From Gammaproteobacteria bacterium (lineage in GTDB: Bacteria; Pseudomonadota; Gammaproteobacteria; Acidiferrobacterales; UBA6901): a DNA stretch of 62,935 nucleotides. The notes beneath the pieces are model-generated. The model made no database searches and had not been told where the DNA came from. It worked only from the letters and a program-made list of their open reading frames with translations. The stretch covers positions 1 to 62,935 of the forward strand of contig JACREH010000026.1 in the NCBI GenBank assembly GCA_016218345.1, written 5' to 3'. Below are positions 27,386 to 43,449 of the stretch, in pieces (position 1 is the stretch's first letter; every line of letters starts with the position of its first letter). A program made the position numbers and the translations under genes.

Positions 27386-27658
27386 TCAGTGCAGCCGACG
27401 ACGTTGCAAGATCATTGCCCATGCTGTGCGCTCGGCTTCGTCGCGACTCAGCCCACCGTCAAACTCTATGATCGCGGCCCGTTCCTCGAAGGCTTCGCGG
27501 TCAATCGGTGTAGGCCCACTAGCCGCAGAAATTTGGCGCAAAGGTGCCGCCGGTGTAGCTACAAAAGGCACAAAAGGGGCTTTTGTTACTTTTGTAGCCC
27601 CGCCCCTGGGCGCATCCTGCTGGGAAATTTTCCGCTTGAGGCGGTCTAGGTAGCTCAT
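27386..27658 (-). CDS. Hypothetical island protein
   Basis: 90 aa, with an ATGA overlap with the primase gene stop. Confidence 0.5.
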   Translation of the reverse strand: MSYLDRLKRKISQQDAPRGGATKVTKAPFVPFVATPAAPLRQISAASGPTPIDREAFEERAAIIEFDGGLSRDEAERTAWAMILQRRRLH

Positions 27659-29736
27659 GCAGCCCTCGCTTTCGGATTGATCCAGTAAAGCGCCTTCGGT
27701 CTGCCGCCAGTCTCTTGCCGTTCTTCGCGCAGATAATCCAGCTCGCCGAGCAACCTAACCGCCTGGCGTGTTTCCTCGGGGTTCGACAGGAAAGCCCAAT
27801 GCTTGAGATAAACATCACGCGGCCCGAAAGGGTCAGGCACTTCACCACGCCGGATGCGGGCAAGCAACGCCCGCGCGCTCTCGGCTTCGGCCTGGATTAC
27901 GCTGGCGTATGCCCGTTGCGCATGGCTTTCGAGATACTCGGCCCAGGCCAGCGCCTTGAGCAGCGCCGTCTCGCCAATAGCGCCGCCGGCATGATCAGCC
28001 AGGTGAATCAGCAGGGCAAGCGCCGGCACGAGCTTTCGATATTTTGCCAAGTGCGACTCGAAGGCCGCATGATCATTGCCGCTGCGGATTCGGTGCTCGA
28101 AGCCCGCCCGCCATTCGGAAAATAGCTCTTGCGCCGCCTCATCGAAGCGCAGATACGGAATGACGCCATCCTCGACCGTCGCGCCAATTGCCATGGGGTC
28201 AAACGTGTCGAGCCGCTCGAAGGTCTGGTGCGCGGTCGCTTTCGCTTCGGTATCCGGCCAGCGGTCAACATCGCGCCACTCGCCCGCAATGTCCGGCCAT
28301 ACCAGCAATTGAAAGCGCGACAGCAGGCCATCACCCCCCGCGCCAGCCACGGCTTGCCGCAGATAGGTTCCGATAACGGCAGGCTGGATGCTGCCAAGCA
28401 ACGAAAGGCAGCAGGCATCAATCCGCAGATTCAACCCGCGCCCGATACGGTCGAAGGTATAGCCCTCGGTGCCACTCCATGCGGACAGGAAAAATCCCCG
28501 CGCCCCTTCGTTGCCTTCCCTGTCCAGTGACTTGAGCAGGCCGACCAGCTCATCCCGATAGGCCAGCGTGCCGTTAGGGTTGAATCGCAAAATCTCGCCG
28601 AGCGCCTCGACCGAGCAATCATTGACGACATAGCGCCGGGCCTGCGGCTCATCGTCGGTAAATTCATCGGCAAGTGCATCCGACCCGACCGCCTTCCCTT
28701 TCTTGAGTGCCTTAACAATGTTCGACCGCTCCGCCTCCCGCTTGAGTTTGAATAGCTCGTTCGCGCGCCGCCATTCGCTAACTTCGACATCGAAGTTTTC
28801 CAGCGCCGCCACTTCGAGCTTCCGCAGGGGCCGCATGGACTCGCGCAACGCGGGCGACTTCATCACGCCTGGCCGGCCAATGATCGCGCCCCACAGGTTA
28901 GGCACTTCGAGCCAGTCATCGCGACGCTTCGGCCGAATGCCGATTTTTCGCCCGACGACGGCCGACAACGAGATCATCGCGCCGACCGCCGGGAAATCCG
29001 GCGGGCACTGCACGCGCTCGGCGATGTCCTGAATCCACAGCCGCAATGAATCGGGCAGCAGATCAAAATCGAATGCCTTGACCGGCGGCAGTGCATCGGG
29101 CAGCGGCATCGGGACGGGCCACGTCTCTTTCTGATCGGCGTGGGTAGTCAGTTTGGGTAGCGCCTCTATATCGTCCTTGACCGCCCCAGGATGCACAGCC
29201 AGCCATTCCATCACATCCTCACCCTTGCCGAGCCCGAGCCTGTCCACGTCCAGGCACTCGATGCGGCACCCCAAGCTGAGGAGGATGTCGGTGACTTCGC
29301 CTGCGTAACTCTTGCCGGGGTCGTCATTGTCCGGCCAGATCACTACGTTACGGCCGCGCAACGGTTCCCAGTCGGCTTTATCCGCGCCCGTTGCGCCGCC
29401 GCTGGTCGTTGTTACCAGGCCGAGCTTGTTGAGTGCATCGGCCTTTTGCTCACCTTCGACTATCCAGACAATGGCGTCGGGATCGCGGGCAATGTAGTGC
29501 AGGGCATATAGTGGTTTGCCGTTCGGGTATTTCGGCTCGGCCAGATCGAAGTCTCCGCCGTTCAGCTTCATGGGCCGAATCCACTTATCCCCCGTGTCAG
29601 GGTGTTTCGCCCGGATGCGCCAATGCAGCGGGTTCCCGTTCACGTCGGTATAGGCGTGCAGTGCTTCGGGTTGGTAGCCATCACGGATTGCGGTGGCCGC
29701 CAATCGTCGTGCGGCCTGTTGAGGAGTTTCGTTCAT
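27655..29736 (-). CDS. Toprim-domain primase fused to a DUF3987-like helicase/ATPase domain
   Basis: Toprim signature IVWIVEGEQKADAL...VVIWPDNDDPGKSYA, then a large C-terminal domain (IGRPGVMKSPAL looks like a P-loop). Start at MNETPQQ with a GGAGG SD. Confidence 0.8.
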   Translation of the reverse strand: MNETPQQAARRLAATAIRDGYQPEALHAYTDVNGNPLHWRIRAKHPDTGDKWIRPMKLNGGDFDLAEPKYPNGKPLYALHYIARDPDAIVWIVEGEQKADALNKLGLVTTTSGGATGADKADWEPLRGRNVVIWPDNDDPGKSYAGEVTDILLSLGCRIECLDVDRLGLGKGEDVMEWLAVHPGAVKDDIEALPKLTTHADQKETWPVPMPLPDALPPVKAFDFDLLPDSLRLWIQDIAERVQCPPDFPAVGAMISLSAVVGRKIGIRPKRRDDWLEVPNLWGAIIGRPGVMKSPALRESMRPLRKLEVAALENFDVEVSEWRRANELFKLKREAERSNIVKALKKGKAVGSDALADEFTDDEPQARRYVVNDCSVEALGEILRFNPNGTLAYRDELVGLLKSLDREGNEGARGFFLSAWSGTEGYTFDRIGRGLNLRIDACCLSLLGSIQPAVIGTYLRQAVAGAGGDGLLSRFQLLVWPDIAGEWRDVDRWPDTEAKATAHQTFERLDTFDPMAIGATVEDGVIPYLRFDEAAQELFSEWRAGFEHRIRSGNDHAAFESHLAKYRKLVPALALLIHLADHAGGAIGETALLKALAWAEYLESHAQRAYASVIQAEAESARALLARIRRGEVPDPFGPRDVYLKHWAFLSNPEETRQAVRLLGELDYLREERQETGGRPKALYWINPKARAA

Positions 29737-30062
29737 CGTTTGGCCTCCACTGTGCCCAGTGCCTTCGCGGCGTCGAAAAAGCGCAGCCCATACCGTTGCA
29801 TGTGGAAAGCCAACACGTCGCCGCCATGGGCGCCGCACGCCATACAACGGAAACCGCCGCTGTCGAGACGCACGCGCAGGCTGGGCTTGGTGTCGTTGTG
29901 GAAAGGGCAGACAGCGGATTTCCATTCACCGCCGCCGGTCAGCTTCAATCCCTGTCCGTGGTAATACTCGCCGGGGTTTGGTAAACGGTCGCGCTTGAAG
30001 GCGAAGGCAGGCCGGTTCAGTCCCCGCGTTGGGTTCGCATGTCGCATCGTTCGCCCCCTCAC
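29733..30062 (-). CDS. CHC2 zinc-finger (DnaG-type) protein
   Basis: CPFHNDTKPSLRV..FRCMACGAHGD. ATGA overlap with the primase. Start is GTG 30062 (overlapping the alpA stop) or ATG 30047. Confidence 0.7.
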   Translation of the reverse strand: MRGRTMRHANPTRGLNRPAFAFKRDRLPNPGEYYHGQGLKLTGGGEWKSAVCPFHNDTKPSLRVRLDSGGFRCMACGAHGGDVLAFHMQRYGLRFFDAAKALGTVEAKR

Positions 30063-30301
30063 ACCGCAGCCTTGCTGGCCGCTTCCGGATTCGCCACCAG
30101 GGCGCGAATATCTTCAATGCGCCATGCGGTTATTCTTTGTCCCAGGGATCTGACTGGTTGCGGATAGCGCCCGGATTTGACTCCGGCCCACCATGTGGAC
30201 CGGCTTACTGGGATGATTGCAGGAATAGGCGGATCCGCTCTGCGGTCGCCAATGATTTGCGGAAGACGAAGAAAACCTGTTTCTGGAAGTATTTGGGGCA
30301 T
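30059..30301 (-). CDS. alpA: AlpA-family transcriptional regulator / excisionase-like protein
   Basis: FLRLPQIIG...IPVSRSTWWAGVKSGRYPQPV is the Phage_AlpA helix-turn-helix pattern. Start is ATG 30301 or 30316. Confidence 0.8.
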   Translation of the reverse strand: MPQILPETGFLRLPQIIGDRRADPPIPAIIPVSRSTWWAGVKSGRYPQPVRSLGQRITAWRIEDIRALVANPEAASKAAV

Positions 30302-30525
30302 GAACGCCTCTCCCATTTTCGGGTTAGACGTCCAGCCAGCCGGGCTGCCAATTTAAAACGCGCTAGTCACGCGTTGCCCCTGGTCTTGAACATGTAAGCG
30401 TTATCGGTGTCGCTGTCGGTGTTCCGGACGGCAAACCCCCGGAGTCGAACCAGTGCTAATAGCCGCGCTACACCGCAACATTTACAGCATCATGAAATAA
30501 AAATCAAGAACATACGCCATGTGAT

Positions 30526-30539
30526 GGATGTGCACATCC
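30526..30539. promoter_or_regulatory. Perfect 14-bp palindrome GGATGTGCACATCC (operator-like)
   Basis: Lies in the divergent alpA/cargo intergenic region, next to an AT-rich stretch (CATGAAATAAAAATCAAGAACATA). Confidence 0.4.
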
Positions 30540-30708
30540 CTGGATCTCGTCACGCGCCAGGCTGCCAAGGGAAGCAGCTTGTCGCCTCGGCGGGCTAGGT
30601 TTCGCATTCTGGACACAATGTCCGTCGCTGTATACGTACATAGTGTTTGGGCATCCGCATTGTACGCTGCGAGGTAGCGCTGAAATAGGCGCAGCGCTAT
30701 AGTGATAG

Positions 30709-30748
30709 CGTCTGAGAGTGTCTGATACCGTCTGAGAGCGTCTGAGGA
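30709..30748. repeat. Four tandem 10-bp repeats CGTCTGAGAG / TGTCTGATAC / CGTCTGAGAG / CGTCTGAGGA
   Basis: Read directly from the sequence. Helical-period spacing; the array ends 9 nt before ATG 30757. Confidence 0.7.
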
Positions 30749-30756
30749 CTCTGCTT

Positions 30757-30948
30757 ATGGGCAAGGTGATACCCTTTCAAAGACCGACCAAGCAGTCGGA
30801 CAACACGAACCCGCCAGGGCCACAGAAGGTCTACGTGCGGTTCGGGGCGCCCGGCCTCATAGAGTGGCTAGAGTCCATCCCTCCACATCTCCGGAAAGGG
30901 GGCACGCTCAAGATCACTCTCCCGGAGAAAAGCCCACTCCCGAAGTAA
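30757..30948 (+). CDS. Hypothetical protein (63 aa)
   Basis: ATG preceded by GAGGA. No recognisable motif. Confidence 0.4.
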   Translation: MGKVIPFQRPTKQSDNTNPPGPQKVYVRFGAPGLIEWLESIPPHLRKGGTLKITLPEKSPLPK

Positions 30949-30989
30949 CGCCTCAAGATAGAGGGCAGGATTTCGCGGAGGGGCCAAAA

Positions 30990-31358
30990 ATGACCGCATC
31001 GCCCCAACAGATCAAGCTGGCCAACCAACACCCGCTCAACAAGGCGGCCAGGACGTTCTTGCCGAAGGACTGGCAGGCGAACGAAATGACGGAACTCCAC
31101 GTCCTGAGTCTGATGCGCTGGGGGCTGGAGAATGGCCTGGAGATAAACCAGCGGGGTAGGCCGACCCAGGAAGAAGTGGAAAGCAGGATCGAAATTCTGG
31201 CAAGGCAAAAGCCTCAAGCGACGATGCGGTTCCTGATAGACCCGGAAAAGACCGGGGACGTGGTGCTGGACGAGGCGGACCTTCTGGAACAGGAGTCGCC
31301 ACTGGACGCGGCGGGGTTTCTACTGGAGTCGCTGGTAACAAGCATGGAAGCGGCGTAA
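30990..31358 (+). CDS. Hypothetical protein (122 aa, acidic C-terminus)
   Basis: ATG preceded by GGAGGGG. No recognisable motif. Confidence 0.5.
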   Translation: MTASPQQIKLANQHPLNKAARTFLPKDWQANEMTELHVLSLMRWGLENGLEINQRGRPTQEEVESRIEILARQKPQATMRFLIDPEKTGDVVLDEADLLEQESPLDAAGFLLESLVTSMEAA

Positions 31359-31504
31359 CGCTTGAGCAGGCTGAGAAGCAGAAGGTCGAAGGCGAATTCA
31401 CCGAGACCGTGCTCAAGGAATACCGGCTGCAATGCTTCGCGGTCCAGGGACGGCTGAACCAGGTTGAGCTTCTCAATAATCGTATTTATTTGTGAGGACA
31501 GTCG

Positions 31505-32110
31505 TTGGTGTCAGCGGCAACACCACATATCGCTGTCAGATACCTCAGCCTCTTTAGCTGGGGCAGGCCGCCGTTGCCATGGGGTTTGGCCGACAAGATC
31601 AACATAGCGTTGCGGGAGCACGACATAGCGAGTGTTGGGGTGACAGGTTCCTTGTGCCCGTCGGTCCTAACAGCCCTGGCCTACGGCTCGCCTGGGCGAA
31701 AGGTAAACGCATTCAACTGCAAGTCTCGCTGGGGTGACGGGGTTGGCTGGAATTGCGTTCTGGACGACTCGCCAGGCATGGAGCTGGATGCTCCCCGAGG
31801 CGAGCCATACCTCCCCGTCAGCAACGTCCATTTTTGGGACGGGGCAACACCGTTTTTTTATTCCCAGGCGCTATTTGTAGACTTACCTTTTAAGCACAGC
31901 CATGTGCGGCTCAAAATCGAACACCTGAATGGCTTTGACCATCGCTTGCTGCTGCTGGGGTTTCTTGACGAACACGATGGGCCTGTGGATGTGCTGGACT
32001 GGGCCATGTCGAAAGGCTACGAGGTTTCAGAGCATGCCGAGAACATAACGAATGTTGAAAAATCAATGTCCCTGGAGTATCGATTGAAAATATTACGGAA
32101 ACCTATGTGA
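31505..32110 (+). CDS. Hypothetical protein (201 aa)
   Basis: TTG/GTG start 8 nt after GAGGA. Lower-GC codon usage. No recognisable motif. Confidence 0.5.
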   Translation: MVSAATPHIAVRYLSLFSWGRPPLPWGLADKINIALREHDIASVGVTGSLCPSVLTALAYGSPGRKVNAFNCKSRWGDGVGWNCVLDDSPGMELDAPRGEPYLPVSNVHFWDGATPFFYSQALFVDLPFKHSHVRLKIEHLNGFDHRLLLLGFLDEHDGPVDVLDWAMSKGYEVSEHAENITNVEKSMSLEYRLKILRKPM

Positions 32111-32224
32111 CTAATAAATAGAGCCCGGCGATCTGGTCGGTGTGCGACATGGTTCAGGCAGGTGTTTCGATGCAGGATATGACGTTCTCGAATAAGGGTT
32201 ACGTCACTTTTTCTAGATGAAGTG

Positions 32225-32896
32225 ATGAAAGCGCAATTGATGGAAAAGCAGGTTAAATCGAAACAACGGGTCGCCGATCACGGCGAGGTATTGACCAACA
32301 AACGAGAGGTCAATGCCATGCTCGATTTGGTGAAACAGGAAACAGAGCGGATTGAATCCCGTTTTCTTGAGCCTGCATGCGGGACAGGGAATTTCCTTAC
32401 AGAAATTCTTGAACGCAAATTGCGCATCGTTGAAGGCCGGTACGGCAAGAGCCAACTGGAATACGAGAGGTATGCCGTGCTCGCGGTGTCATCTAGCTAC
32501 GGTATAGATATCCTATTTGATAACGTCCAAGAGTGTCGTAAGCGGCTTTTCGATATCTTCAATCAGAAGTACACAGGCTTGTTCAACGGACGAGCTAAGG
32601 ATGAATGTCGTAACGCCATCCGATTTATTCTGGAGCGAAATATCATTTGGGGAGATGCGCTCTCGCTCAAGACGGTGGGCGAGAACCCGAAGTCGATTGT
32701 CTTTTCTGAATGGTCGCCAGTGAACGGAAGCATGCTAAAACGGCGGGATTTCACGTTCCATGGTTTGCTCGCGCATGAGGCAATCAAAGAACTACCGCTC
32801 TTCTCCGATCTCGGTGAGGATGTCTTTATCCCAACACCGGAGAAGGAATACCCCCTAACTCACTTTCTTGAGGTGGCGAAAGTTGACGACTGGTAA
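32225..32896 (+). CDS. Truncated N6-adenine methyltransferase-like protein lacking catalytic motif IV
   Basis: [29 protein letters not shown] (motif I), YGIDIL, and IIWGDAL. No (D/N/S)PP(Y/F/W) tetrapeptide occurs anywhere in the protein. Confidence 0.65.
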
Positions 32897-34406
32897 TTAC
32901 AATCCGGACGTGTTGACTTGCCTGGCAAACCTCAGCAGTGACGAGGTGTTCACGCCGCCGCAAATGGCGAATCAGATGCTCGACTTGCTTTCGATAGAGC
33001 TCTGGAGCAATAAGAACGCTACGTTTCTGGATCCTGGCTGCAAATCAGGCGTGTTTCTGCGCGAGATCGCCAAGCGCCTCGATAAAGGGCTGGAAGCGCA
33101 GATTCCACACCGCCAGAAACGACTGAACCACATTTTCAAAAATCAGCTCTACGGTCTTGCCACAACCGACCTGACCGCCCTATTGTCACGCCGGTCCGCA
33201 TACTGCTCCAAGACGGCCAATGGGAAGTATTCAGTCTGCGAAGCCTTCGATAACCCACAAGGCAATATCCGTTTCGGGCGCGTCGAGCACACATGGCAGA
33301 ATGGCCGATGCGCGTACTGCGGAGCCAATGAGGAGAACTATGAGCGAAGCAGCGAACTGGAAAGCCATGCCTACACGTTCATTCACACTGACAAGCCAGA
33401 GGAGATTTTCGACATGAAATTCGATGTCGTCATCAGCAACCCGCCGTATCAGTTGAGCGATGCTGGTTATGGCGCCAGCGCGTCACCGATCTACCACAAG
33501 TTCGTCGAGAGCGCGATCAGCCTCAACCCACGTTACATCGTGATGATTACGCCATCACGCTGGTTCGCCGGCGGCAAGGGATTGGACGAATTCCGTGAAC
33601 GGATGCTCAGCGAATCGCGTCTACGGAACCTCGTTGACTATCCGAAGCTTTACGACGGATTCCCAGGCGTGAAGATACGAGGTGGTGTCTCATATTTTCT
33701 GTGGGATCGCGACTACGACGGTCCATGCACCGTACAGACGATGTGGGACGGCGCGCCGCTCGGTTCACCGATGGAGCGAAGTTTGAACACCTACGACGTT
33801 CTCGTCCGCCGGAACGAGGCTGTCTCAATTCTCGACAAGGTCCGTGCCTATCGCGTCGGAGGAAAGGCGGAGCGAACTCTGGATGCGTGCGTGTCCAGTC
33901 AGAAGCCGTTCGGGCTGCGAACATTCGTTCACGGTGCTGAGTCCAGGAAGGGACTAAAGCGTCCGGTTAAGCTCTATGGTTCACAGCGCGTCTCGTGGGT
34001 GGAACGAACAGCGATCGAAAGGAACGCGTCATGGATAGATGAATGGAAGGTCCTGATGACGCGTGTCCAGGGCACGAGTGCAGCGGTGGAGACCATGTTC
34101 TTGAGTCGGCCCATCATTGCTGGGCCAGGCGAGGCTTGCACAGAATCATATGTGGTCGCGGGCCGATTCACGAACGAAAAAACCGCAAAGCTCTACGCGC
34201 AGTATTTACGAACCCGGTTTGTCCGGTTCTTGGTGTCACTGCGCAAGGCGACGCAGGACGCGGCCAAGGATGTCTACGCGTTCGTCCCAGACGTTCCGCT
34301 CAACCTGGCGTGGACCGACGAGAAACTCTATGAACGCTACGGGCTAACAAAGGACGAGATCGCTCTTATTGAGTCTATTGTGCGCCCGATGGATGCAGAT
34401 GAATGA
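32883..34406 (+). CDS. Gamma-class N6-adenine DNA methyltransferase (Eco57I/N6_Mtase-like)
   Basis: [28 protein letters not shown] (motif I), [10 protein letters not shown] (motif IV), and a C-terminal region of about 250 aa that could be a TRD. The start is uncertain (TTG 32868 / TTG 32883 / GTG 32910). Confidence 0.85.
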
Positions 34407-36925
34407 GTAAAGACTTCTTCCCCCCGCGCCCTGACTCGCGGCCTGCCATCTATGCCTACGAGGATACGAATTCGCAGTATGCGGGCCTACTTAAAGTCGG
34501 CTATACGACCGTGGATGTGCAGAGCCGTGTTGCCCAGCAGTACCCGACTTTACGACCCGGCAAGCCGCCCTATAGGATCATCCTGGAAGAGCCCTCCATG
34601 CGGAATGACGGGACGGTATTCACCGACCACGATGTCCACCGGATGCTCCGACTCAATGGCGTTAAGAATCCAGAAGGCGAGTGGTTTCTTTGCACGGTCG
34701 CCCAGGTCAAGGCGGCGATCATTTCTGTTCGGACCGGACAACTGAACGAAGAGAACCGGACACTCGATTTCAGAATGCGGCCGGAGCAGGAAGCGGCGGT
34801 CGAGAAGACGGCGGCGTACTTCACAAGTTGGCGCAAGGAAAAGGGCAACCGGAACAAGCCGCCGCACTTCCTGTGGAATGCGAAGATGCGTTTCGGCAAG
34901 ACATTTTCCACCTACCAGTTGGCGAAAAAAATGGGCTGGCGCAAAGTGCTGGTGCTCACCTTCAAGCCCGCAGTGCAGAGTGCCTGGGAAGACGACCTGA
35001 AATCTCATGTTGATTTCGAGGGTTGGCAGTTCATCTCTCCGGGCGGTCTACCCTTTGGAAAGGTAAACAAAAGGAAACCGTTCGTCTGTTTCGGCTCATT
35101 TCAAGATTATCTAGGAAGGAACCGCAGCACGGGTGGGATCAAAACAAAAAACGAGTGGGTTCATGCAACCCAATGGGACTGTATCATCCTCGACGAATAC
35201 CACTATGGCGCCTGGCGCGAAAACGCAAAAGAACTTTTTGATGAAGAAGTTGAGAAGGCGGCTGAGCGAACTGACGAGGAAGAGCGCTTTGATGTCATTG
35301 AAGACATCATACCTATCACAACTGACGCCTATCTATATCTTTCCGGCACACCATTCCGAGCCATCGCATCCGGCGAGTTTATCGAGGAGCAGATATTCAG
35401 CTGGACTTACTCAGATGAGCAGCGGGCGAAAAGGGACTGGAAGGGCATTAACAATCCCTACGCCGCGTTGCCAAGGATGGTGCTCCTGACCTACCAACTC
35501 CCGGACGCGATCCGGGAAATCGCCATGCAAGGTGAGTTCAACGAGTTCGATCTGAACGTCTTCTTCTCTGCCGAGGGCATCGGCGACAAGGCGAAGTTCA
35601 AGTATGAGGACGAGGTTCAGAAGTGGCTGGACCTGATTCGCGGCGCGTTCCTGCCGACCAGTGTTGACAATCTGAAACTCGGGGCGCAGAAGCCGCCGAT
35701 GCCGTTTTCGGACGTGCGGCTCCTGAACGTGCTATCACACACATTCTGGTTCCTCCCCAGCGTGGCCTCCTGTCACGCCATGCGCAACTTGCTAGCAAAG
35801 AAACAGAACCGGTTCTACCACGACTACAAGGTGATCGTGGCGGCGGGTAGCGCAGCCGGAATGGGCGTCGCGGTTTTGCCGCCAGTGCAGGAGGCGATGG
35901 ACGACCCTCTCAAAACAAAGACCATCACGCTGTCTTGCGGCAAGTTGACCACGGGCGTGACTGTGAAACCGTGGTCGGGCATTCTCATGCTTCGCAATTC
36001 ATCCAGCCCTGAGACGTATTTTCAAGCAGCCTTCCGAGTGCAGTCACCTTGGACGGTCCGCAACCCGGACGGAGCATCCCCGAACGAAGAACAGATCATC
36101 AAGGAAGAGTGCTACGTCTTTGACTTTGCGCCGGATCGGGCATTGCGGCAAATCGCCGACTACAGTTGCCGTTTAAACGTAGATGAGTCGAACCCGGAAA
36201 AGAAGGTTGCAGAGTTCATCAGCTTCCTGCCGGTCCTCGCCTACGATGGCAGTTCGATGAAGCAAATTGACGCCGCCGGCATTCTCGACATGGCGATGAG
36301 CGGAACTACTGCAACGTTGCTGGCGCGGCGCTGGGAAAGTGCGTTGCTCGTGAATGTGGACAACGACACCTTGCGTCGCCTGATGAACAACAAGAAGGCG
36401 ATGGATGCCCTCATGAGCATTGAGGGTTTCCGCAATCTCAATCAGGAGATCAAGACCATCATCAACAAGTCGGAAGCCGTGAAAAAAGCCCGCAAGGAAG
36501 CCAACGACGAGGAGTTGTCCACGAAGGAAAAGAAGAAACTGACCGAAGAGGAGAAGGAGTATAAGGGCCTTCGGAAGCAGATTCAGGAGAAGCTCATCAA
36601 ATTCGCTACGCGGGTGCCCATTTTCATGTACCTGACCGACTACCGCGAGCGGACGCTGAAGGACGTGATTACGCAGCTGGAACCGGGGCTCTTCAAGAAG
36701 GTCACCGGTCTGACCGTGAAAGACTTCGAATTGCTCGTGAGCCTTGGGGTCTTCAACAGCGCATTGATGAACGATGCAGTCTACAAATTCAAGCGGTATG
36801 AGGATGCCAGCTTGAGCTATACAGGAATCAACAAACATGAAGGCGAGGATGTCGGCCTTTATGATACAGTGCTGAGCGCGGGTGACTATCAATCCACTTT
36901 TGTGAATGTCACTGCTAAACCATGA
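34403..36925 (+). CDS. T5orf172/GIY-YIG-like nuclease domain fused to an SNF2/ResIII-type helicase
   Basis: N-terminus: [25 protein letters not shown]. Helicase motifs: RFGKTF (I), ILDEYHY (II) and YLSGTPFRA (III). It ends in a K/E-rich coiled-coil tail. ATGA overlap with the MTase. Confidence 0.85.
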
Positions 36926-37002
36926 GCAGGTGCGCTTTGAGTTAATGCTGGAGAACAATTGTCAGTAGTAACTCCCTGACAGCCTCACAAATTAGAGAAT
37001 CT

Positions 37003-38037
37003 ATGGCCATTTGGTTAATTCGCGCCGGCTCCCACGGCGAATACGAACATAAGTTCATCCAGGAAGCCCGAGTCTATGTGACTTGGGAGGGTCTCGATGT
37101 GAATCTCGCCAACCTCAAACAACGCGCCGATTTGACGGCAGCGATGACCGAGCGTTCACCGGACAAGAAGCCAAAAGCAATTATGAATTGGGTTAGTCAG
37201 GTGTGGCCATTTGCTCAGGAGATGAAGAAAGGCGACCTGGTTGTGTTGCCGCTCAAGTCGCAGCCCGCAATCCAGGTTGGCGAGATAACGGGCGATTACC
37301 ACTTCGAGTCAGCCGGGCCGGACCCATACTTTCACTGGCGGCCGGTGAAATGGATTGCCGAGGCCGTGCCGCGCGCCAACTTCGGTAGAGACTTGCTATA
37401 TACTTTCGGCGCGTTTATGACGATCTGTCGCGTGCAGCGTAACAACGCGGAACAACGTATCGCCGCCATGCGGGCGAACAGTTGGAAACCAGAAACGGTC
37501 GTGGCCGCTACTAAGGCAACAACGCCGGCCAGCGATGAAGCGGCAGAAGACACCGACCTCGAAGCACTCGCTCTCGACCAGATTGCCCAACTTATAGCCG
37601 CGCGTTTCAAGGGTCACGGTCTAACGCGACTGGTGGAAGCCATTCTTAAGGCGCAGGGTTACACCACCTACCGCAGTGCAGAAGGCGCAGACGGTGGCGC
37701 AGATATCCTTGCGGGTGCCGGCCCACTCGGCTTCGAAAAGCCGCGACTCTGTGTCGAAGTGAAATCGGAAAGCGGTCCCATCGACAGGCCGACAGTGGAT
37801 AAACTGCTGGGTGCGGTCGCCAAGTTCGGCGCAGATGAGGGCTTGTTTGTTTCATGGGGTGGCTTCAAGAGCAACGTACAAAAGGAACTCGCGGCCAGTT
37901 TTTTCCGGGTGCGACTGTGGACACAGAAAGAACTTCTGGAACAACTCTTTGCTAATTACGATCAGTTAGATGAGGACTTGAAGGCTGAGCTGCCCTTGAA
38001 GCGAATCTGGATGGTGGCGGCGCAGGAAGAAGAGTAG
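37003..38037 (+). CDS. Mrr-family (type IV-like) restriction endonuclease with N-terminal reader-like domain
   Basis: C-terminal Mrr_cat pattern GADGGADILAG...RLCVEVKS...GLFVSWGGF. The N-terminal 150 aa (MAIWLIRAGSHGEYEHKF...) is typical of this enzyme family. Confidence 0.75.
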   Translation: MAIWLIRAGSHGEYEHKFIQEARVYVTWEGLDVNLANLKQRADLTAAMTERSPDKKPKAIMNWVSQVWPFAQEMKKGDLVVLPLKSQPAIQVGEITGDYHFESAGPDPYFHWRPVKWIAEAVPRANFGRDLLYTFGAFMTICRVQRNNAEQRIAAMRANSWKPETVVAATKATTPASDEAAEDTDLEALALDQIAQLIAARFKGHGLTRLVEAILKAQGYTTYRSAEGADGGADILAGAGPLGFEKPRLCVEVKSESGPIDRPTVDKLLGAVAKFGADEGLFVSWGGFKSNVQKELAASFFRVRLWTQKELLEQLFANYDQLDEDLKAELPLKRIWMVAAQEEE

Positions 38038-38153
38038 GAGTTTTTGCAATTAGTCACGCCGCTTGCGCGGGGCCACTGGCGGACCAGAGCTTTGCCTAGC
38101 CCCTAGCCTTCCCAAGACTACTCCCCGTATTGAATGTTGGTTGCGCTGTTGAC

Positions 38154-38489
38154 TCAGGGCAACCACGTTGCTGGAATGTTAGTAGTACCTATTTTGAGCT
38201 TTGAATCCTCATAGCTAATCGTCAGAGGATCCTGTGTAGGCGGTACACGTCTTAGACCGCCCATAACGGGTAGCGCAATAATGACTTTGCCCTGCCAGGA
38301 ACCACTGGCCGGGAGAGTATGATCTACTCCTATCGCTGAAATGGTGAGGTTGGTTCCATCATATTCAAATTCGACTTCCTCTCTGGCGATGTTGCGTTTG
38401 CCTAGTTTGGCGCCATATCGCATCGCTTTGAGGCATCCTACGAAATCAGCCAGAGCAACAACGAGTTTAAAATTGTTTGTTGGAATCAT
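38154..38489 (-). CDS. Hypothetical protein (111 aa)
   Basis: Low-GC ORF with beta-rich sequence and no recognisable motif. Confidence 0.45.
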   Translation of the reverse strand: MIPTNNFKLVVALADFVGCLKAMRYGAKLGKRNIAREEVEFEYDGTNLTISAIGVDHTLPASGSWQGKVIIALPVMGGLRRVPPTQDPLTISYEDSKLKIGTTNIPATWLP

Positions 38490-38629
38490 AATTACCGGCT
38501 TCCTAATCTAATCAGATCCTGAATTTCTACCGCGCCACGATCCCCGTTCAAATTGCACATGCAGCACATCGTTTCTGCCGGGACTTTAAAAACTGGGGCT
38601 GGCTGCGCGATGCGAGGCTATAGGAGACA

Positions 38630-38878
38630 TTACGAAATGAGTTTTGGGAACGACTCAAAGACAATTTCTTTCGTTTCGCTCATGTACTTTCTTACGGTAT
38701 CGATGTCTCCCGCCGATACCCCGCCTGTAACTTGTATGACATCGTCCAAGGAGTAGAACTCATAATAGGTGCCGTCATCAAAGACGAGGAACAGTTGCGA
38801 CTTTGGTGATTTGTCGCCGGTCTTGATTACGATTCCCTTGATCGTTTTTCCCAGAATTTCTTGCGCACCGTCTTTCAT
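38630..38878 (-). CDS. Hypothetical protein (82 aa)
   Basis: Low-GC ORF with no recognisable motif. Confidence 0.45.
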   Translation of the reverse strand: MKDGAQEILGKTIKGIVIKTGDKSPKSQLFLVFDDGTYYEFYSLDDVIQVTGGVSAGDIDTVRKYMSETKEIVFESFPKLIS

Positions 38879-38916
38879 TTCCGTCCTCCAGCAGGTTCCA
38901 CAAGGTAAGGGCTATT

Positions 38917-39381
38917 TTACTTGGCAGAGTATTGTTGGGAGTACCGGGAAATGATGTTTTTACGCCACGCAATTACGAAGCCTGTCGCTTCCTTTTCGAT
39001 GAGATTCTCGAACGCCTGATCGTCCGCCGACTGGTTGTAATCAATATCGTATTCGTCGCATTTATCCACAAAAAATTGAACCAATTCTTCTGAACATGAC
39101 TTGAGCGATGCTGCGGAACCGAACACAGCCTCAAAGTACCAGTCATCGCTCAGCTCTTCACCATTCTCAAAGCGAATATCCCAATCCCAGAGGTCGGTGA
39201 TCATGAAGTCGAGGGGTATGCATTCGTTGAGCCGATCCTTCAACTGCACCAACTGTTCTTCGGACAGTTGAGCGGGAGGGCAGGGTGTCTCTATTGTGTC
39301 TGGATCTATCGAGAAATAGGACAGAATCAGGTAACCGACGAGCTTGTTCTGATTTGCAGCGAGAAATTCTTCGTAAGTCAT
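38917..39381 (-). CDS. Hypothetical strongly acidic protein (154 aa)
   Basis: By my count about 31 Asp+Glu against about 11 Lys+Arg. No recognisable motif. Confidence 0.55.
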   Translation of the reverse strand: MTYEEFLAANQNKLVGYLILSYFSIDPDTIETPCPPAQLSEEQLVQLKDRLNECIPLDFMITDLWDWDIRFENGEELSDDWYFEAVFGSAASLKSCSEELVQFFVDKCDEYDIDYNQSADDQAFENLIEKEATGFVIAWRKNIISRYSQQYSAK

Positions 39382-39855
39382 TTCGTGGCCCCCGGAAATC
39401 AGCGTGCCCGACTATCGGAATTCGTTGTTCCTAAACAATACTATTCATTCCCTGGGTATGCTACATATTGCCCTTATGATATACCGCCTCCCGATAAAAC
39501 CGCCCCCGCTGATGTATCTTGACGGCCGTGAGCCGATTCCCTACAAATGTTCGCCGACACAGCCGGAGTGGAAGGTTCGCGTGCACAAGCGTACAAAACC
39601 TTCGGACTCCACGTCCGACACGACGAAGCCAGAATCTTAACCAGCGCGATTTTAACCATCCCGACCGCAGGCTGACAGGAATCACAGGGGATAGGGCGAG
39701 GCGATTCAGGCAACGACTCGTGCCGCCCTGTGGTTTTCCCAATAGCGGTCTCCCGAGTAAAATAATCATCGATTGTTCTTGCCCGTGGCAAGTTCGTCAT
39801 CCATGCTTCGGTTTGGCATTATCCCACCAATAGAGATTTCGTTCGAAAGCACTGT

Positions 39856-41706
39856 ATGAAAATTGTATCACTGCAATTGTCCAATATTCTGAGCTTCAGA
39901 TACTCCGATAACATTGGTTGTGCCGAGAAGATCAGCTTTGATGACGATCTCAATATCATCATTGGGGAAAACGGCTCAGGTAAATCGACGGCTCTAGAGG
40001 TCATAAATTTCCTGTTCAGGCGCGTTCTCTATAAACAGTACAACCTCAACCAAGACCTATACACTCAGCGGAACAGCATTAACGCTGATCAACGAAAACA
40101 GATTCTCCTGCCCGCAAACAACCTTTCGTATGATGGTTTTAGACTTGATCCTAATTGGAATACAGAAGACCGGCCCCAAACAATCCGTATTGTGGTTAAG
40201 CTGGACGAGATCGATAAAAAGAACATTCAGTACCTGCAAGATAAGCGAGTCACTTTGGCACCGTGGGTAGGGCGTTACACCACACGGGGTGAGACTGCTG
40301 CGTCAGACTATGGCGAGATGTACACTCTCGATATTATCCTAAATCGAAATGAGAAAACGTTCTCCGTCCAACCTCTGGACTGCGCGCAAGATTATGGGTA
40401 TGAGTACCTCACGGACTACAATTTTTACAAAGATACCATCGCTCTCTACAATTTAGAAAATTCGGTGAATCCGATCGATACGCTCTACGAGTCATTCACT
40501 CTCATCAGCAGTTACCGAAACTACCATGCTTTCAATGTCTCCATAAGCCTGCGAGACCACCACCCTGCCGTACAGATTCAGCAAATTCGGAGTGCTGACT
40601 ATACAAGGAGTCTAAACGCCAACGATAACTCGGAGCCAGCGATTTTCGCGCTTGTTCGTCTCCGAGTTGCCGAGAAGCACTTTGGCTTAATCTCACAAAA
40701 AATGGACGAGGCGGAATGCGAGGCCGCTGCTAATGCACTGCCGTTCATAGTGGAGATCAACAAACGTCTTCGCATCGTCAATCTGAAGTGCAAAATAAAG
40801 CTTCTTGACCTTCGCACTTGGCGCTACAGTTTTGAATTTCTAGACCTGCGAAGAAACAAGACCATTGCGGACATCAATAGCCTCAGTGCTGGGCAGAAGG
40901 CTATTACTCATCTTGTCTTCGAGGCCTACGGAAGAGGCGACCTAAAAGGTGGACTCGTGATCATTGATGAGCCAGAAATTCATCTGCACCATCAATTCCA
41001 GCATGAGTACCTACAGGTAATACGAGAGCTGAACAAACATCAGAGTTGTCAGTATATTCTGGTTACGCATTCCGAAGCACTCATAAACTCAGCAACCATC
41101 AGTAGTGTACGGCGGTTCAGTCTCAACACCGAGGGATACACAGAGATACGATTCCCCAAACTTACAGCGGAACAGAAGGTCTTGATTCGTATTCTCGACA
41201 ATACGAGATCAACCTACGCGTTCTTTGCCAAGAAAGTTGTTTTGGTCGAAGGGGACACCGACAGATACTTCTTTAAGGCAGTGGTTCAGTCGCTGTATCA
41301 GGAGCTGGACCAAGAGATCGCGATACTTCACGTCGCCGGTAAGAACGAGCTTGCTCAATGGACTACTCTTTTTGAGAGCTTTGGGCTGATTGTCTATCGG
41401 ATAGCTGACTTGGATTATGCCTACGATCTCTTCTACCCCCTCGAACCGCGGACGAGCCTAAAGACGCCTGCCGCCGTAACGGCTTTCAAGATAGCACATC
41501 CTGATTGCGAGTCTAGAATAACTACGGAGTATGCAAATAAAACCTTTATTCTCAGGAACGGTGATCTTGAGCATTATCTCGATATTGGCAAGGATCTGGC
41601 GGAAGTCATAACGTTATGTACCAATCAGTTGGCACAGTACCTACAAGATGAAAGCAATCAGAAAAGCGTAGAAGTTAGAGAGATTGTTCGGCAGATCACT
41701 GTCTAG
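39856..41706 (+). CDS. OLD-family / PARIS-like ABC ATPase fused to a Toprim nuclease domain
   Basis: Walker A GENGSGKST, signature LSAGQK, Walker B LVIIDEPEIHLH, ILVTHS, then a Toprim-like VVLVEGDTDRYFF ... IADLDYA. Confidence 0.8.
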   Translation: MKIVSLQLSNILSFRYSDNIGCAEKISFDDDLNIIIGENGSGKSTALEVINFLFRRVLYKQYNLNQDLYTQRNSINADQRKQILLPANNLSYDGFRLDPNWNTEDRPQTIRIVVKLDEIDKKNIQYLQDKRVTLAPWVGRYTTRGETAASDYGEMYTLDIILNRNEKTFSVQPLDCAQDYGYEYLTDYNFYKDTIALYNLENSVNPIDTLYESFTLISSYRNYHAFNVSISLRDHHPAVQIQQIRSADYTRSLNANDNSEPAIFALVRLRVAEKHFGLISQKMDEAECEAAANALPFIVEINKRLRIVNLKCKIKLLDLRTWRYSFEFLDLRRNKTIADINSLSAGQKAITHLVFEAYGRGDLKGGLVIIDEPEIHLHHQFQHEYLQVIRELNKHQSCQYILVTHSEALINSATISSVRRFSLNTEGYTEIRFPKLTAEQKVLIRILDNTRSTYAFFAKKVVLVEGDTDRYFFKAVVQSLYQELDQEIAILHVAGKNELAQWTTLFESFGLIVYRIADLDYAYDLFYPLEPRTSLKTPAAVTAFKIAHPDCESRITTEYANKTFILRNGDLEHYLDIGKDLAEVITLCTNQLAQYLQDESNQKSVEVREIVRQITV

Positions 41707-42007
41707 TGATCGTTGCCCCCGGATATCGTGAGCGGTGTCGCGTGTCGTCCGTTTGTGGGTATTGGGCAGAGAGTCCGCTTTAGCAGTTTTCAACGGCACT
41801 TTGGATCAGCGTGAATGACTCCGGTGGGTTGTTTCCGGACCGTCAGATTGTGGCTGAAACTTGACGGCAGGGCGCCGCCTATCGAATAAATTCTCAGCTA
41901 CTCATGTCATATCGAAAGAAAGCAACGCGACAAGCCGCGTGCTGCGTTTCGGTACAACCGCCATTTACGTTAATCTCGTCCGACCCTCAATGGCTCTCTA
42001 TATGCGG

Positions 42008-43210
42008 TCAGGCGCTTTGAAGTATCGGGATGTCTTCGGCCACAGCCTTTAGCTTGTCGAGATAATTCGCCCAAGCCTGCATCATCTTGCGGCGTACCGA
42101 CAGGTGTTCGGCGTAGTTGTAAGCCGCGCGTATCTCGTCACGTTCGGCATGTGCAAGCTGGCGTTCTATGGCGTCCCGGTTCCATCCTTGTTCGTTGAGT
42201 AGCGTAGACGCCATACTTCTGAAGCCGTGCCCGGTCATGTCGCCGACCGCGTAGCCAAGCCGACGAAGCCCGGCGTTGACGGTGTTCTCGCTCATGTGGC
42301 GGTCATCGCCACGTGCACCGGGAAACACATAGCGCCCCGTGCCTGTCAGTGCGTGAAGGTCTCTCAGGATCAACACGGCTTGCGTGGACAGCGGCACGAT
42401 ATGAACGGCCTTCATCTTCATTTTGTGTTCCGGTATGCGCCACTCGGCCTTGTCCAGATCGAACTCCGACCACTCCGCCTTGCGCAGTTCGCCAGGGCGC
42501 ACGAAGACCAATGGCGCCAATTGCAGCGCACCCCGGGTGATGTACGAGCCGCTATACCCGGCAATGGCGCGCAACAGTTCGCCAACCCGCTTGGGTTCGG
42601 TGATGGTTGGGTGATGATGTTCTTGAGCCGGCGGAATCGCGCCGCGCAGATCGCTGGAAGGATCGCGTTGCGCGCGACCGGTGGCAACGGCATATCTGAA
42701 CACCTTTCCGCAGTTCTGGTGGACGCGGTGCGCGGTTTCAAGTGCGCCACGGGCTTCAATACGGCGCAATACTTTGAGCAGTTCCGGCGCGTTCACATCG
42801 CCAATCGGGCGGCTCCCCAACCACGGAAATACTTCGCCCTCCAACCGCCGGATGATTTTATCGGCATGGCTTGTAGCCCAGCCCGGTGAAAACTTGGCGT
42901 GCCATTCCCGCGCTACCGCCTCGAAGCTGTTCTCAGTCGCCGCCTTGTTGGTCTGCTTCAATACGCCGGGGTCAACACCATCGGCCAGCAGCTTGCGCGC
43001 CTGGCCGCACCGCTCGCGTGCTTGTGCCAGTGACACGTCGGGATAGACACCGAGGGCAAGGCGTTTTTCTTTGCCGCTGACGCGGTACTTCATGCGCCAA
43101 TACTTGCCACCCGCCGGCGTTACTTCCAGGTACATCCCCCTGGCGTCTGCGAGCCTGTAGGACTTCTCGCGTGGCTTGGCGTTACGTACTGTTGTGTCGG
43201 ATATGGGCAT
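42008..43210 (-). CDS. int: P4-type tyrosine integrase
   Basis: N-terminal DUF4102-like region (KSYRLADARGMYLEVTPAGGKYWRMKY), then catalytic residues in RPGELR..., HGFRS and LAHAERDEIRAAYNY. It lies adjacent to tRNA-Asn. Confidence 0.9.
   Translation of the reverse strand: MPISDTTVRNAKPREKSYRLADARGMYLEVTPAGGKYWRMKYRVSGKEKRLALGVYPDVSLAQARERCGQARKLLADGVDPGVLKQTNKAATENSFEAVAREWHAKFSPGWATSHADKIIRRLEGEVFPWLGSRPIGDVNAPELLKVLRRIEARGALETAHRVHQNCGKVFRYAVATGRAQRDPSSDLRGAIPPAQEHHHPTITEPKRVGELLRAIAGYSGSYITRGALQLAPLVFVRPGELRKAEWSEFDLDKAEWRIPEHKMKMKAVHIVPLSTQAVLILRDLHALTGTGRYVFPGARGDDRHMSENTVNAGLRRLGYAVGDMTGHGFRSMASTLLNEQGWNRDAIERQLAHAERDEIRAAYNYAEHLSVRRKMMQAWANYLDKLKAVAEDIPILQSA

Positions 43211-43373: not shown

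Positions 43374-43449
<76 letters not shown>

Follow-up and report, generated by a model that had tools for sequence, protein, structure and literature searches.

A widespread three-gene operon of a putative N6-adenine methyltransferase, a T5orf172-helicase protein and a conserved half-methyltransferase, with likeness to translocating restriction-modification systems

Type ISP restriction-modification (R-M) enzymes such as LlaGI and LlaBIII (PMC3553950, PMC2790908) carry a nuclease, a superfamily 2 (SF2) motor, a coupler, a gamma-class N6-methyladenine (m6A) methyltransferase and a target recognition domain (TRD), in this order, on a single polypeptide. LlaBIII and LlaGI are >95% identical over the first three domains, outside the TRD (PMC3553950). 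A related combination was noted by Morgan et al. (2009), who found nuclease-less MmeI homologues beside a YeeB-like helicase and a YeeC-like GIY-YIG protein, proposed that they form a Type I-like system modifying one strand, and also pointed to large proteins that combine nuclease, helicase, methyltransferase and TRD in one chain (PMC2731913). Here we analyse a three-gene operon in contig JACREH010000026.1 of a Gammaproteobacteria bacterium (assembly GCA_016218345.1; the whole 62,935-nt stretch is called the window below). Its genes encode a free-standing half-methyltransferase (g1), an Eco57I-family N6-adenine methyltransferase with a C-terminal TRD (g2) and a predicted nuclease-translocase (g3). 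We read it as an ATP-dependent R-M system that would follow Type ISP/Type I logic with three proteins, g1 being an obligate non-catalytic subunit, and give this reading a probability of about 0.55. Its identity as an R-M system is suggested by the Eco57I and N6_Mtase profile matches of g2, an invariant NPPYQ motif, a variable TRD, passenger genes typical of Type I loci and a defence-rich island. That g1 is an obligate subunit is suggested by its 442 cluster representatives, its retention beside fused g3-g2 enzymes, strong purifying selection, a confident structural model and invariant motifs.

Joined as g3-g2, the two large proteins would reproduce the Type ISP order of nuclease, SF2 motor, coupler, gamma-class m6A methyltransferase and TRD. 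The double-stranded DNA (dsDNA) translocase of Type ISP enzymes has its counterpart in g3, with a ResIII match, invariant motifs and a fold match to LlaBIII, Snf2 and ZorD; the gamma-class methyltransferase with C-terminal TRD has its counterpart in g2, whose motifs run in the order X, I, II, III, IV. As in Type ISP enzymes, specificity appears to be altered by exchanging the TRD on a constant frame. In contrast to the single Type ISP chain, g3 and g2 are split in the window and joined only in distant fused relatives, and the place of the N-terminal Mrr-family PD-(D/E)xK nuclease is taken by a T5orf172/GIY-YIG domain. Type ISP enzymes also lack two traits found here, the constant dead half-methyltransferase subunit and an invariant Lys in motif I of g2. 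At the sequence level, phmmer and profile searches of PDB sequences did not retrieve LlaGI or LlaBIII (4xqk, 5ffj).

The DnmA/YeeA-YeeB-YeeC cluster of Bacillus subtilis likewise joins in one operon a gamma-class m6A methyltransferase that has a TRD but no nuclease domain, an SF2 helicase and a T5orf172/GIY-YIG domain. However, its helicase and T5orf172 domain are on separate proteins, the latter C-terminal in YeeC, whereas in g3 they form one chain with T5orf172 at the N-terminus. The DnmA-type methyltransferase is described as a member of the MmeI family, whereas g2 belongs to the Eco57I family. In the descriptions consulted, no half-methyltransferase gene is reported for DnmA-type clusters, and no extra methyltransferase gene flanks the homologues described (PMC2731913). 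Type III systems (EcoP15I, EcoP1I) share the placing of the methyltransferase gene upstream of the helicase-nuclease gene, as g2 precedes g3 with an ATGA overlap, and the assembly of both products into one ATP-dependent complex, which is predicted here. Their Mod protein is beta-class with an internal TRD, whereas g2 is gamma-class with a C-terminal one; Res has a C-terminal PD-(D/E)xK domain, whereas the g3 nuclease is N-terminal and its C-terminus is a coiled coil followed by a helical region. The second Mod of a Type III enzyme is another copy of the first, whereas g1 is a truncated paralogue. In the Type III Mod dimer one protomer recognizes the site and the other methylates, a loose precedent for a non-catalytic partner. 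The initial annotation had likened the operon to Type III; the gene order supports this, but the likeness is weaker than that to Type ISP and Type I, given the g3-g2 fusions and their shared catalogue profile. With Type I systems the operon would share a multi-subunit, ATP-dependent organization, a motor subunit with an N-terminal nuclease and a gamma-class methyltransferase, all predicted here, as well as the same set of passenger genes and diversification of specificity by recombination. It differs in having no separate HsdS gene, the TRD lying inside g2, and in that the motor is present without the PD-(D/E)xK domain of HsdR, the nuclease being of GIY-YIG type; nor is there a second full methyltransferase subunit, as found in Type I.

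The closest catalogued entry is PDLC03626, a REBASE-derived 'Type IIG' profile of PADLOC that covers g3 and g2 as one chain and omits g1; it stands for single-chain proteins and for no characterized system, and the fused relatives are thus already catalogued as putative Type IIG. The absence of a matching named system, noted at the outset, stood up in both model collections: no named-system model of PADLOC 2.0 or NCBIfam 20 scored above threshold, and only generic R-M profiles matched. No NCBIfam family was found for g1 or g3, g1 giving only a far sub-threshold MAD2 match, with MADS and BREX models far below their cut-offs. The combination of an Eco57I-type methyltransferase, a T5orf172-helicase fusion and a conserved half-methyltransferase is, provisionally, undescribed in the searchable full-text literature. 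As far as found, an obligate pseudo-methyltransferase subunit together with an invariant Lys in the cofactor loop of the catalytic subunit would be new for R-M systems.

All three plus-strand open reading frames (ORFs) were found at the positions first annotated. Gene g1 (32222-32896, plus strand) encodes 224 aa from GTG 32222; starts at ATG 32225 or ATG 32240 (Met7, used in the NCBI annotation) would give 223 or 218 aa. Gene g2 (32883-34406, plus strand) had been annotated as 512 aa, which corresponds to an upstream start at TTG 32868. The 507-aa form from TTG 32883 is more plausible: a Shine-Dalgarno-like GAGGTGG, read off the sequence at 32870-32876 on the plus strand within the 3′ end of g1, precedes TTG 32883 by 7 nt and makes this the most likely start. 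As g1 stops at TAA 32894-32896, the two genes then overlap by 14 nt. The end of g2 and the start of g3 (34403-36925, plus strand, 840 aa) share ATGA at 34403-34406. These overlaps are kept in relatives, at -14 or -11 nt for g1/g2 and -8 nt for g2/g3. The ORFs, the 14-nt overlap and the shared ATGA confirm the translationally coupled three-gene operon that had been proposed.

The g1 protein has only one Pfam match, to the first ~70 positions of MmeI_Mtase and below the gathering threshold (22.5 versus 27 bits). Its cofactor motifs are nevertheless clear in an alignment of 33 diverse family members. Motif X, G21-E-V-L-T25 (32282-32296, plus strand), has G21, E22, V23 and T25 invariant and aligns to GEFYTP of the Type I HsdM in PDB 3ufb. 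Motif I is a canonical S-adenosylmethionine (SAM)-binding motif of 12 residues (32363-32398, plus strand) with E50, A52, C53, G54, G56, F58 and L59 invariant, and is likewise canonical in distant homologues. Motif II, YGIDI (32498-32512, plus strand), keeps Y93 and G94 followed by D or E, so that its acidic residue is retained, and motif III, NIIWGDAL (32639-32662, plus strand), keeps N140 and G144 followed by D or N. W164 is also invariant. A catalytic [DNS]PP[YFW] tetrapeptide is absent, as first annotated, from g1 and also from every g1 homologue examined.

The register of these motifs was settled by five longer relatives (P0352, P0362, P0367, P0313 and P0300; 483-580 aa), which are complete Eco57I-family methyltransferases. 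In each, DVIIGNPPYQ links a g1-type N-half (39-56% identity) to a C-half and TRD homologous to those of g2 (P0352 versus g2, 9e-83). Against DVIIGNPPYQ of P0352 and P0362, the motif-IV position of g1 is the degenerate segment of residues 199-210 (32816-32851, plus strand), where conservation is lost in distant g1 homologues and beyond which g1 continues for only ~14 residues. The sequence VGENPKS, previously placed at motif IV, lies instead in the insertion between motifs III and IV, a family-specific segment, FSEW...KRRDF.F..LL, modelled as a beta-hairpin. One of the five, P0367 (580 aa, 8001-9743 of locus L008), stands without a g3 beside Type I hsdM/hsdS genes and an integrase gene, and the undivided enzyme thus circulates as an orphan. 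A two-gene ancestral system was not seen in the three contigs inspected for such full-length relatives, two of which were too short to show the context.

An AlphaFold2 model of g1 was obtained with high confidence (predicted local distance difference test, pLDDT, 90.5; predicted template modelling score, pTM, 0.86). The Rossmann strands b1 (48-51), b2 (92-96) and b3 (141-145) are followed by the hairpin (160-178), by a loop at 187-195 that is disordered and by a C-terminal helix; the model is compact, with the hairpin and the C-terminal tail packed onto the sheet. Its PDB matches are confined to the N-part of gamma-class methyltransferase domains (CamA, BsaXI, LlaGI, LlaBIII), with query template modelling (TM) scores of ~0.35 over 100-150 columns. 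Motif IV and the C-half motifs V-VIII of an active gamma-class enzyme are missing, the model holding b1-b3 and the hairpin only. The alignment and the N-part-only matches thus agree with the initial annotation of a half-methyltransferase with neither motif IV nor a TRD. On these features g1 is predicted to be an autonomous, catalytically dead copy of a SAM-binding lobe, without the C-half fold or a TRD, and it probably binds SAM. Catalytically dead paralogues are retained as obligate partners of active methyltransferases in METTL14/METTL3 and DNMT3L/DNMT3A. These may serve as an analogy, with the difference that these are eukaryotic RNA and DNA methyltransferases and have complete or otherwise truncated folds, whereas g1 keeps the SAM motifs and lacks the C-half.

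The g2 protein matches Pfam Eco57I over its entire length (6e-36, positions 1-171 of 171) and also N6_Mtase, and in PADLOC it matches MTase_II (3e-50) and REase_MTase_IIG, that is PDLC03626 (2e-46, profile positions 975-1357). The MTase_II profile PDLC03375 (348 aa) matches g2 only from residue 183, that is from motif IV. Invariance in g2 was judged over 26 diverse homologues, fused forms included. The catalytic motif IV, N186-P-P-Y189 (33438-33449, plus strand), is invariant together with Q190, so that both a catalytic NPPY and a complete catalytic-domain profile are present. The cofactor motifs are atypical. In motif I (12 residues, 33024-33059, plus strand) a Lys, K54, stands at the first Gly of GxG, and D50, K54 and G56 are invariant; the variants seen in the family (DPGCKSG, DPCTKSG, DPCCKSG, DPACKTG, DLYVKSG, DPFCKAG and INSKTG) all have Lys for this Gly. 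When g2 is aligned by profile to BREX PglX/BrxX structures, K54 pairs with the first G of DPACGSG, and an Ala of g2 motif II with the Asp of GLDID; g2 thus has neither the canonical (D/E)PxxGxG of motif I nor the acidic residue of motif II. The description of g2 as a complete enzyme therefore holds for its Pfam profile and NPPY, but not for its SAM motifs, which are atypical at Lys54 and at the motif II Ala. Across the superfamily the two proteins are complementary, g2 having NPPY with altered cofactor motifs and g1 textbook cofactor motifs with no NPPY. Four Cys residues, C108, C119, C143 and C146 (33204-33320, plus strand), inserted between motifs II and III of g2 and conserved among 63 close homologues, may bind zinc, judging from the sequence.

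The domain composition first given for g3, a T5orf172/GIY-YIG module, an SF2 helicase and a coiled-coil tail, was reproduced by Pfam and by the structural model. Pfam matches are to T5orf172 (4e-9; 37.2 bits against a cut-off of 20), MUG113 and ResIII (1e-5), and PDLC03626 is matched over profile positions 174-801 (2e-29). Invariance in g3 was judged across two clades that are ~31% identical. The T5orf172 domain of the GIY-YIG superfamily (residues ~15-110; 34445-34732, plus strand) has Y17, K31, G33, R42, H79 and E93 invariant, so that an above-threshold profile match and conserved Tyr, Arg and Glu, as expected of the T5orf172 family, are both present. We take the Y17/R42/E93 pattern to match the GIY-YIG Tyr/Arg/Glu set, and these three are candidate catalytic residues. 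No PD-(D/E)xK domain was detected in g3, in agreement with the initial annotation. The SF2 ATPase/translocase core (residues ~123-600; 34769-36202, plus strand) contains the GKT Walker A sequence (34895-34903) and DEYH (35192-35203), with G165, K166, D264, E265, H267, S314-G-T316, Q541 and R545 of motifs I, II, III and VI invariant. The Lys/Glu-rich coiled coil and the C-terminal helical domain (36350-36922, plus strand) are 80-95% conserved and helical in the model. In Foldseek searches of the PDB the best match to g3 was ZorD of Zorya (3e-10), with Snf2 remodellers, LlaBIII and SauUSI up to 1e-8, and RapA and RadD also among the best; LlaBIII ranked 3 and 12, with the widest coverage (805-836 columns) and query TM scores of 0.31-0.34. 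The modelled fold is consistent with a dsDNA translocase. A profile search of PDB sequences with g3 gave only generic SF2 matches and coiled-coil noise, and single-sequence PDB searches with g1, g2 and g3 gave nothing informative.

That g3 and g2 act together is suggested by natural fusions. Such fused relatives were first hinted at by the matches of both g3 and g2 to the one 1359-aa profile PDLC03626, and were found among distant relatives retrieved by tblastn of g3 against plasmids and phages. Unfused sets occur on Rhizobium pRphaN671a (215 + 538 + 847 aa), in Mycolicibacterium (234 + 537 + 868 aa), in Legionella adelaidensis (261 + 478 + 811 aa) and in the gut phage NatCom_35866 (260 + 506 + 974 aa). 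In Firmicutes, including plasmids of this group, a g3-g2 fusion is found on Enterococcus faecium pAT02-a (1445 aa, with a 248-aa half-methyltransferase), on Lactococcus lactis pCV56A (1452 aa) and in Loigolactobacillus (1417 aa). Residues 1-649 of g3 correspond to residues 1-641 of the fusion, which continues with the coiled-coil/C-terminal segment and then the entire g2. These Rosetta-stone fusions argue for a physical association of g3 with g2, with the C-terminus of g3 beside the N-terminus of g2. Since the same segment leads straight into the methyltransferase in the fused relatives, the coiled-coil/C-terminal region of g3 is likely the coupler to g2.

In every distant relative the small gene lies immediately 5′ of the large gene or genes, and it is never part of the fusion. 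BLAST matches of the small proteins to g1 have E-values of 4e-67 (phage), 2e-53 (Rhizobium), 8e-37 (Enterococcus), 8e-33 (Lactococcus), 9e-25 (Mycolicibacterium) and 4e-13 (Legionella). The small proteins of Loigolactobacillus and Bifidobacterium are more divergent, with motif X as AEVFTP and a motif I-like LEITCGEAP(Y/F). Thus g1 stays separate even beside fused g3-g2 enzymes and where g3 is only 30% identical. Two side observations concern individual fusions. On E. faecium pAT02-a (locus L090) the fused system lies ~900 bp downstream of optrA, which confers oxazolidinone/phenicol resistance. Residues 1-~290 of the L. lactis pCV56A fusion (3518-4390 of locus L097) have no Pfam match and do not align to the T5orf172 domain of g3, and the nuclease module may have been exchanged in the Lactococcus lineage.

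The operon is widespread. At least 8000 homologues each were found for g1 and g3, and among the top 120, from very different phyla, g1 was 79-100% and g3 86-93% identical to the window proteins. In an exhaustive search of 50%-identity cluster representatives, 442 relatives of g1 were found at E<1e-30, mostly of 210-290 aa. Relatives of g3 occur in at least 575 genomes from >20 phyla in a scan with one genome per species; the best 80 of these (74-87% identity) include Chloroflexi, Planctomycetota, Acidobacteriota, Cyanobacteria, Spirochaetota, Bacteroidales, Deinococcota, one bacterium of the candidate phyla radiation (CPR) and one Woesearchaeota metagenome-assembled genome (MAG). Essentially all of the best 80 loci with enough upstream DNA have g1, g2 and g3 in this order on one strand, as do 25 of 27 IMG/VR viral contigs and the contigs found via g1. 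At E<1e-10, the Legionella-type clade by itself accounts for 2852 members, among them L. pneumophila, Bdellovibrio and Bacteriovorax. Taken together, the operon is found in bacteria and at least one archaeon, on plasmids, in Legionella pneumophila and in phages from the gut and the environment. In two MAGs g3 is intact but g1 and g2 are fragmentary, with only residues 7-40 of g1 in a Hydrogenedentota MAG (L011) and only residues 372-506 of g2 in a Methylococcaceae MAG (L073), which points either to decay of these copies or to a g3 that does no harm on its own.

Rough dN/dS values (ratios of nonsynonymous to synonymous substitution rates) were ~0.09 for g1, 0.12 for the N-half and 0.11 for the catalytic C-half of g2, ~0.35 for the TRD, 0.10 for the g3 nuclease domain and 0.06 for the g3 motor, with synonymous sites saturated (median dS 1.6-2.5) and 11-26 of 70 sampled pairs usable. 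Purifying selection acts on all three genes, and the constraint on g1 matches that on the enzymes. With synonymous sites saturated and dN/dS low, the protein identity across phyla reflects strong constraint. The truncated appearance of g1 and the lower G+C content around it (0.485 for 32001-33000) might suggest that g1 has no function and is what is left of a methyltransferase gene decaying after duplication or disruption. We consider the chance of this negligible: thousands of homologues share the length and motifs of g1, it holds the same position across >20 phyla, plasmids and phages, its predicted fold is confident, and its conservation (442 representatives; dN/dS ~0.09) effectively refutes a pseudogene, which was rejected on these grounds. 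g1 is a conserved functional gene and not debris.

A different pattern was seen within g2. Identity to the window protein is 60-87% over residues 1-280 of g2 and drops to 25-38% over the TRD (~280-440), while g3 is 75-95% identical throughout. Correlations of pairwise-distance matrices over 58 loci (Mantel) separate two modules. One group, the frame, comprises g1, residues 1-175 of g2 and all of g3, which are mutually correlated (rho 0.36-0.66); g1 itself gave rho 0.57 with the g2 N-half and 0.42-0.55 with g3 (p = 0.002 each). The remaining parts of g2, residues 176-280, 281-440 and 441-507, correlate with their neighbours (rho 0.41-0.44) and not with the frame (rho ~0), and g1 gave rho -0.02 with the catalytic C-half and 0.04 with the TRD. 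The swappable module (33435-34406, plus strand) thus contains the catalytic C-half, the TRD (residues ~281-440, nt 33723-34202) and the C-terminus. Three pairs of loci with frames >85% identical and different TRDs show a clear profile: identity is ~0.9 up to g2 residue ~181, falls from motif IV onward to 0.16-0.4 within the TRD, and is back at ~0.9 where g3 begins. At a threshold of ≥60% identity, the TRDs of 64 g2 copies form 25 clusters; the TRD type of the window is common to six loci from five phyla. Specificity therefore appears, from these alignments, to diversify by recombination, the swapped cassette extending from motif IV of g2 to its stop codon. A search of the window for silent spare copies of this module found none. 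The split into frame and swappable parts is the behaviour of an R-M specificity module and argues against g1 as a specificity partner, a role suggested in the initial annotation; with rho 0.04 to the TRD and 0.42-0.57 to the frame, that candidate was rejected.

The same boundary bears on an alternative in which the enzyme is split between two chains. Here g1 would be the true SAM-binding N-lobe, pairing in trans with the C-half of g2 (motifs IV-VIII) in a composite Rossmann fold, an arrangement we regard as rather unlikely; equally doubtful is its corollary, that the Lys-bearing N-half of g2 is a structural pseudo-lobe serving as a docking platform for g3. The five full-length relatives join just such a g1-type N-half to a g2-type C-half and TRD, g1 stops at the motif-IV position where the PDLC03375 match to g2 begins (residue 183), and the recombination breakpoint coincides with the boundary between the two halves of g2; the superfamily-wide complementarity of canonical SAM motifs in g1 and altered ones in g2 also fits. 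However, the g1 model is compact and packed on itself, unlike an open half-fold, no co-variation links g1 to the catalytic C-half, and the N-half of g2 is as conserved as g1 and retains motif X and the motif I Asp. A system with g1 and an equivalent of g2 lacking the N-half was not found.

Passenger genes lie between g2 and g3 in about one third of the loci and, more rarely, between g1 and g2. By Pfam they encode Bro-N (7 loci), YhcG/DUF1016 (4 loci plus L002-L004), Fic, RhuM, HARE-HTH, PIN, ORF6N, IS200-like transposase and a DarT-Macro fusion. DUF1016, RhuM and Fic genes are known between the core genes of Type I loci (PMC9881135). The Bro-N protein, of ~287 aa, recurs in the g2-g3 slot at seven loci from various phyla (L012, L016, L028, L036, L054, L065 and L083) and may be more than a random passenger, because in phage proteins Bro-N frequently accompanies T5orf172. 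The DarT-Macro fusion, of an ssDNA ADP-ribosyltransferase with a Macro domain, is a 392-aa protein (DarT match 2e-45) encoded between g1 and g2 in an Anaerolineales MAG (L079, 4106-5304); toxin and antidote in a single chain are unusual for DarTG.

In the three-protein R-M system that we favour, g2 would read its DNA target through the variable C-terminal TRD and methylate adenine at the NPPY site, marking host DNA. g3 would dock on the N-half of g2 through its coiled-coil/C-terminal domain; at an unmodified target its Snf2/Type ISP-like SF2 motor would translocate dsDNA, and cutting would be carried out by the N-terminal T5orf172 (GIY-YIG-type) nuclease. g1 would belong to the constant frame together with the N-half of g2 and g3, and would bind SAM and supply or gate a cofactor-dependent activity, a role suggested by the invariably non-canonical SAM-binding motifs of g2. 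Such a SAM-binding accessory or licensing protein is favoured because g1 has an autonomous fold and conserved cofactor motifs, co-varies with the frame and is never fused. A stronger version, in which the canonical SAM site has been relocated to the dead g1 as a subunit that senses or delivers cofactor and so licenses methylation and/or restriction, we put forward only tentatively. If true, it would mean control through a dissociable SAM-binding protein, possibly directed against SAM depletion by phages or against anti-restriction proteins that target the methyltransferase lobe, and stand-alone phage proteins with the g1 fold would be a counter-move. Such proteins were found when the g1 model was compared with viral models, where whole small phage proteins match. 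The best is a 199-aa 'N-6 DNA methylase' of phage ctHEp8 (BFVD A0A8S5TY28; TM 0.72/0.80); others are A0A345MN74 and A0A1B1P8M5 (Klebsiella phage KpV477).

The stand-alone proteins, A0A8S5TY28 in particular, would equally fit an arms race over this module, as envisaged if g1 were not a working subunit but a regulator, setting the balance of methylation and restriction or their timing after transfer, or a guard, serving as decoy or sensor for phage factors that hit methyltransferase lobes or deplete SAM. The constant separateness of g1, even where g3 and g2 are fused, its place as the first gene of a coupled operon and its loss of the catalytic motif with the SAM motifs kept are all compatible with this. 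Regulatory and sensor roles had been suggested in the initial annotation. We judge both versions viable but decidedly unlikely: nothing in g1 indicates a DNA-binding or transcription-regulator fold, specific support for sensing is lacking, and a dN/dS of ~0.09 with co-variation within the frame suits a stoichiometric subunit at least equally well.

Several points weigh against the reading of the operon as a three-subunit R-M system. Distance correlations within a co-transferred cassette reflect shared history and are not proof of contact. Motif X and the motif I Asp are still present in the N-half of g2, as is an acidic residue at +3 from the canonical motif II site, and because of these g2 may well bind SAM on its own, which would leave the role of g1 unexplained. 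The g3 model is moderate overall (pLDDT 68, pTM 0.52), with domain cores at 70-90, and its Foldseek matches do not discriminate between Snf2, Type ISP and other SF2 motors; in the profile search of PDB sequences, no link of g3 to LlaGI/LlaBIII, HsdR or Res was found. A characterized member was, provisionally, not found in the searchable full-text literature. Finally, the B. subtilis dnmA-yeeB-yeeC cluster, a related one, showed neither restriction nor protection against phages (Fernandez et al. 2023, PMC9973331).

This last result fits the alternative that the operon does not restrict at all, being an epigenetic or orphan methylation module with a repair or recombination helicase-nuclease, or a selfish addiction cassette, and so comparable to the B. 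subtilis 'relic'. T5orf172 proteins have been tied to recombination (PMC7824862), and for a defence system the proteins are unusually well conserved across phyla. On the other side, Vibrio homologues of DnmA/YeeB do protect against phages (cited in PMC9973331), and passengers typical of Type I R-M are found in the cassette (PMC9881135). The 25 TRD types under relaxed constraint are a signature of specificity turnover under conflict, the operon is located in defence islands and on mobile elements, and the nuclease and motor motifs of g3 are all intact and invariant. On balance, a function other than restriction seems very improbable.

If the three-subunit R-M reading holds, the operon would be among the most widespread R-M architectures without a characterized member, and it would bring a nuclease of GIY-YIG type into the family of translocating Type I/ISP enzymes. 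It opens questions on the use of SAM in licensing restriction and on recombination between frame and specificity modules. Practical uses would lie in reading m6A motifs in metagenome methylomes, in annotation, where pipelines currently label g1 'DNA methyltransferase', and possibly as a source of enzymes with programmable specificity.

Around the operon, a block of the window has a lower G+C content (~0.47-0.57, against 0.60-0.70 in the flanks). This block holds a P4-type tyrosine integrase gene (42008-43306, minus strand), which adjoins a tRNA-Asn gene (43374-43449, minus strand), as well as further defence genes, and ~27600-43450 is therefore a P4-like integrative, defence-rich island. A 25-mer search allowing ≤3 mismatches found no att repeat of the 3′ end of the tRNA-Asn gene. 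Near-identical annotated DNA was not found in E. coli genomes, and plasmids gave merely a trivial 194-bp match. Upstream of the operon, a DUF3987 primase-like gene (27655-29925, minus strand) was identified by Pfam, and an 85-aa ORF (30059-30316, minus strand) without a Pfam match looks AlpA-like by eye. A 201-aa ORF upstream of the operon and the Mrr-family gene downstream of it were considered as cassette members and rejected, both being absent from cassette loci elsewhere.

The Mrr-family gene (37003-38037, plus strand, 344 aa) starts 77 nt 3′ of g3. Its product has a C-terminal Mrr_cat domain (1.5e-24) and ~170 N-terminal residues without a Pfam match, and is matched end to end (7e-155) by PDC-S02, a candidate single-gene system of PADLOC. 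Farther downstream, an OLD-family ATPase-TOPRIM gene (39856-41706, plus strand), with matches to AAA_15, AAA_21, OLD-like_TOPRIM and PADLOC Old (1e-25), is GajA-like; an adjacent GajB-type helicase partner is not obvious. Two small unannotated ORFs on the minus strand (38154-38489 and 38917-39381) lie between the Mrr and OLD genes. A 261-aa antisense ORF (36173-36958, minus strand) across the 3′ end of g3 mirrors the Lys/Glu-rich coding sequence and is most likely spurious.

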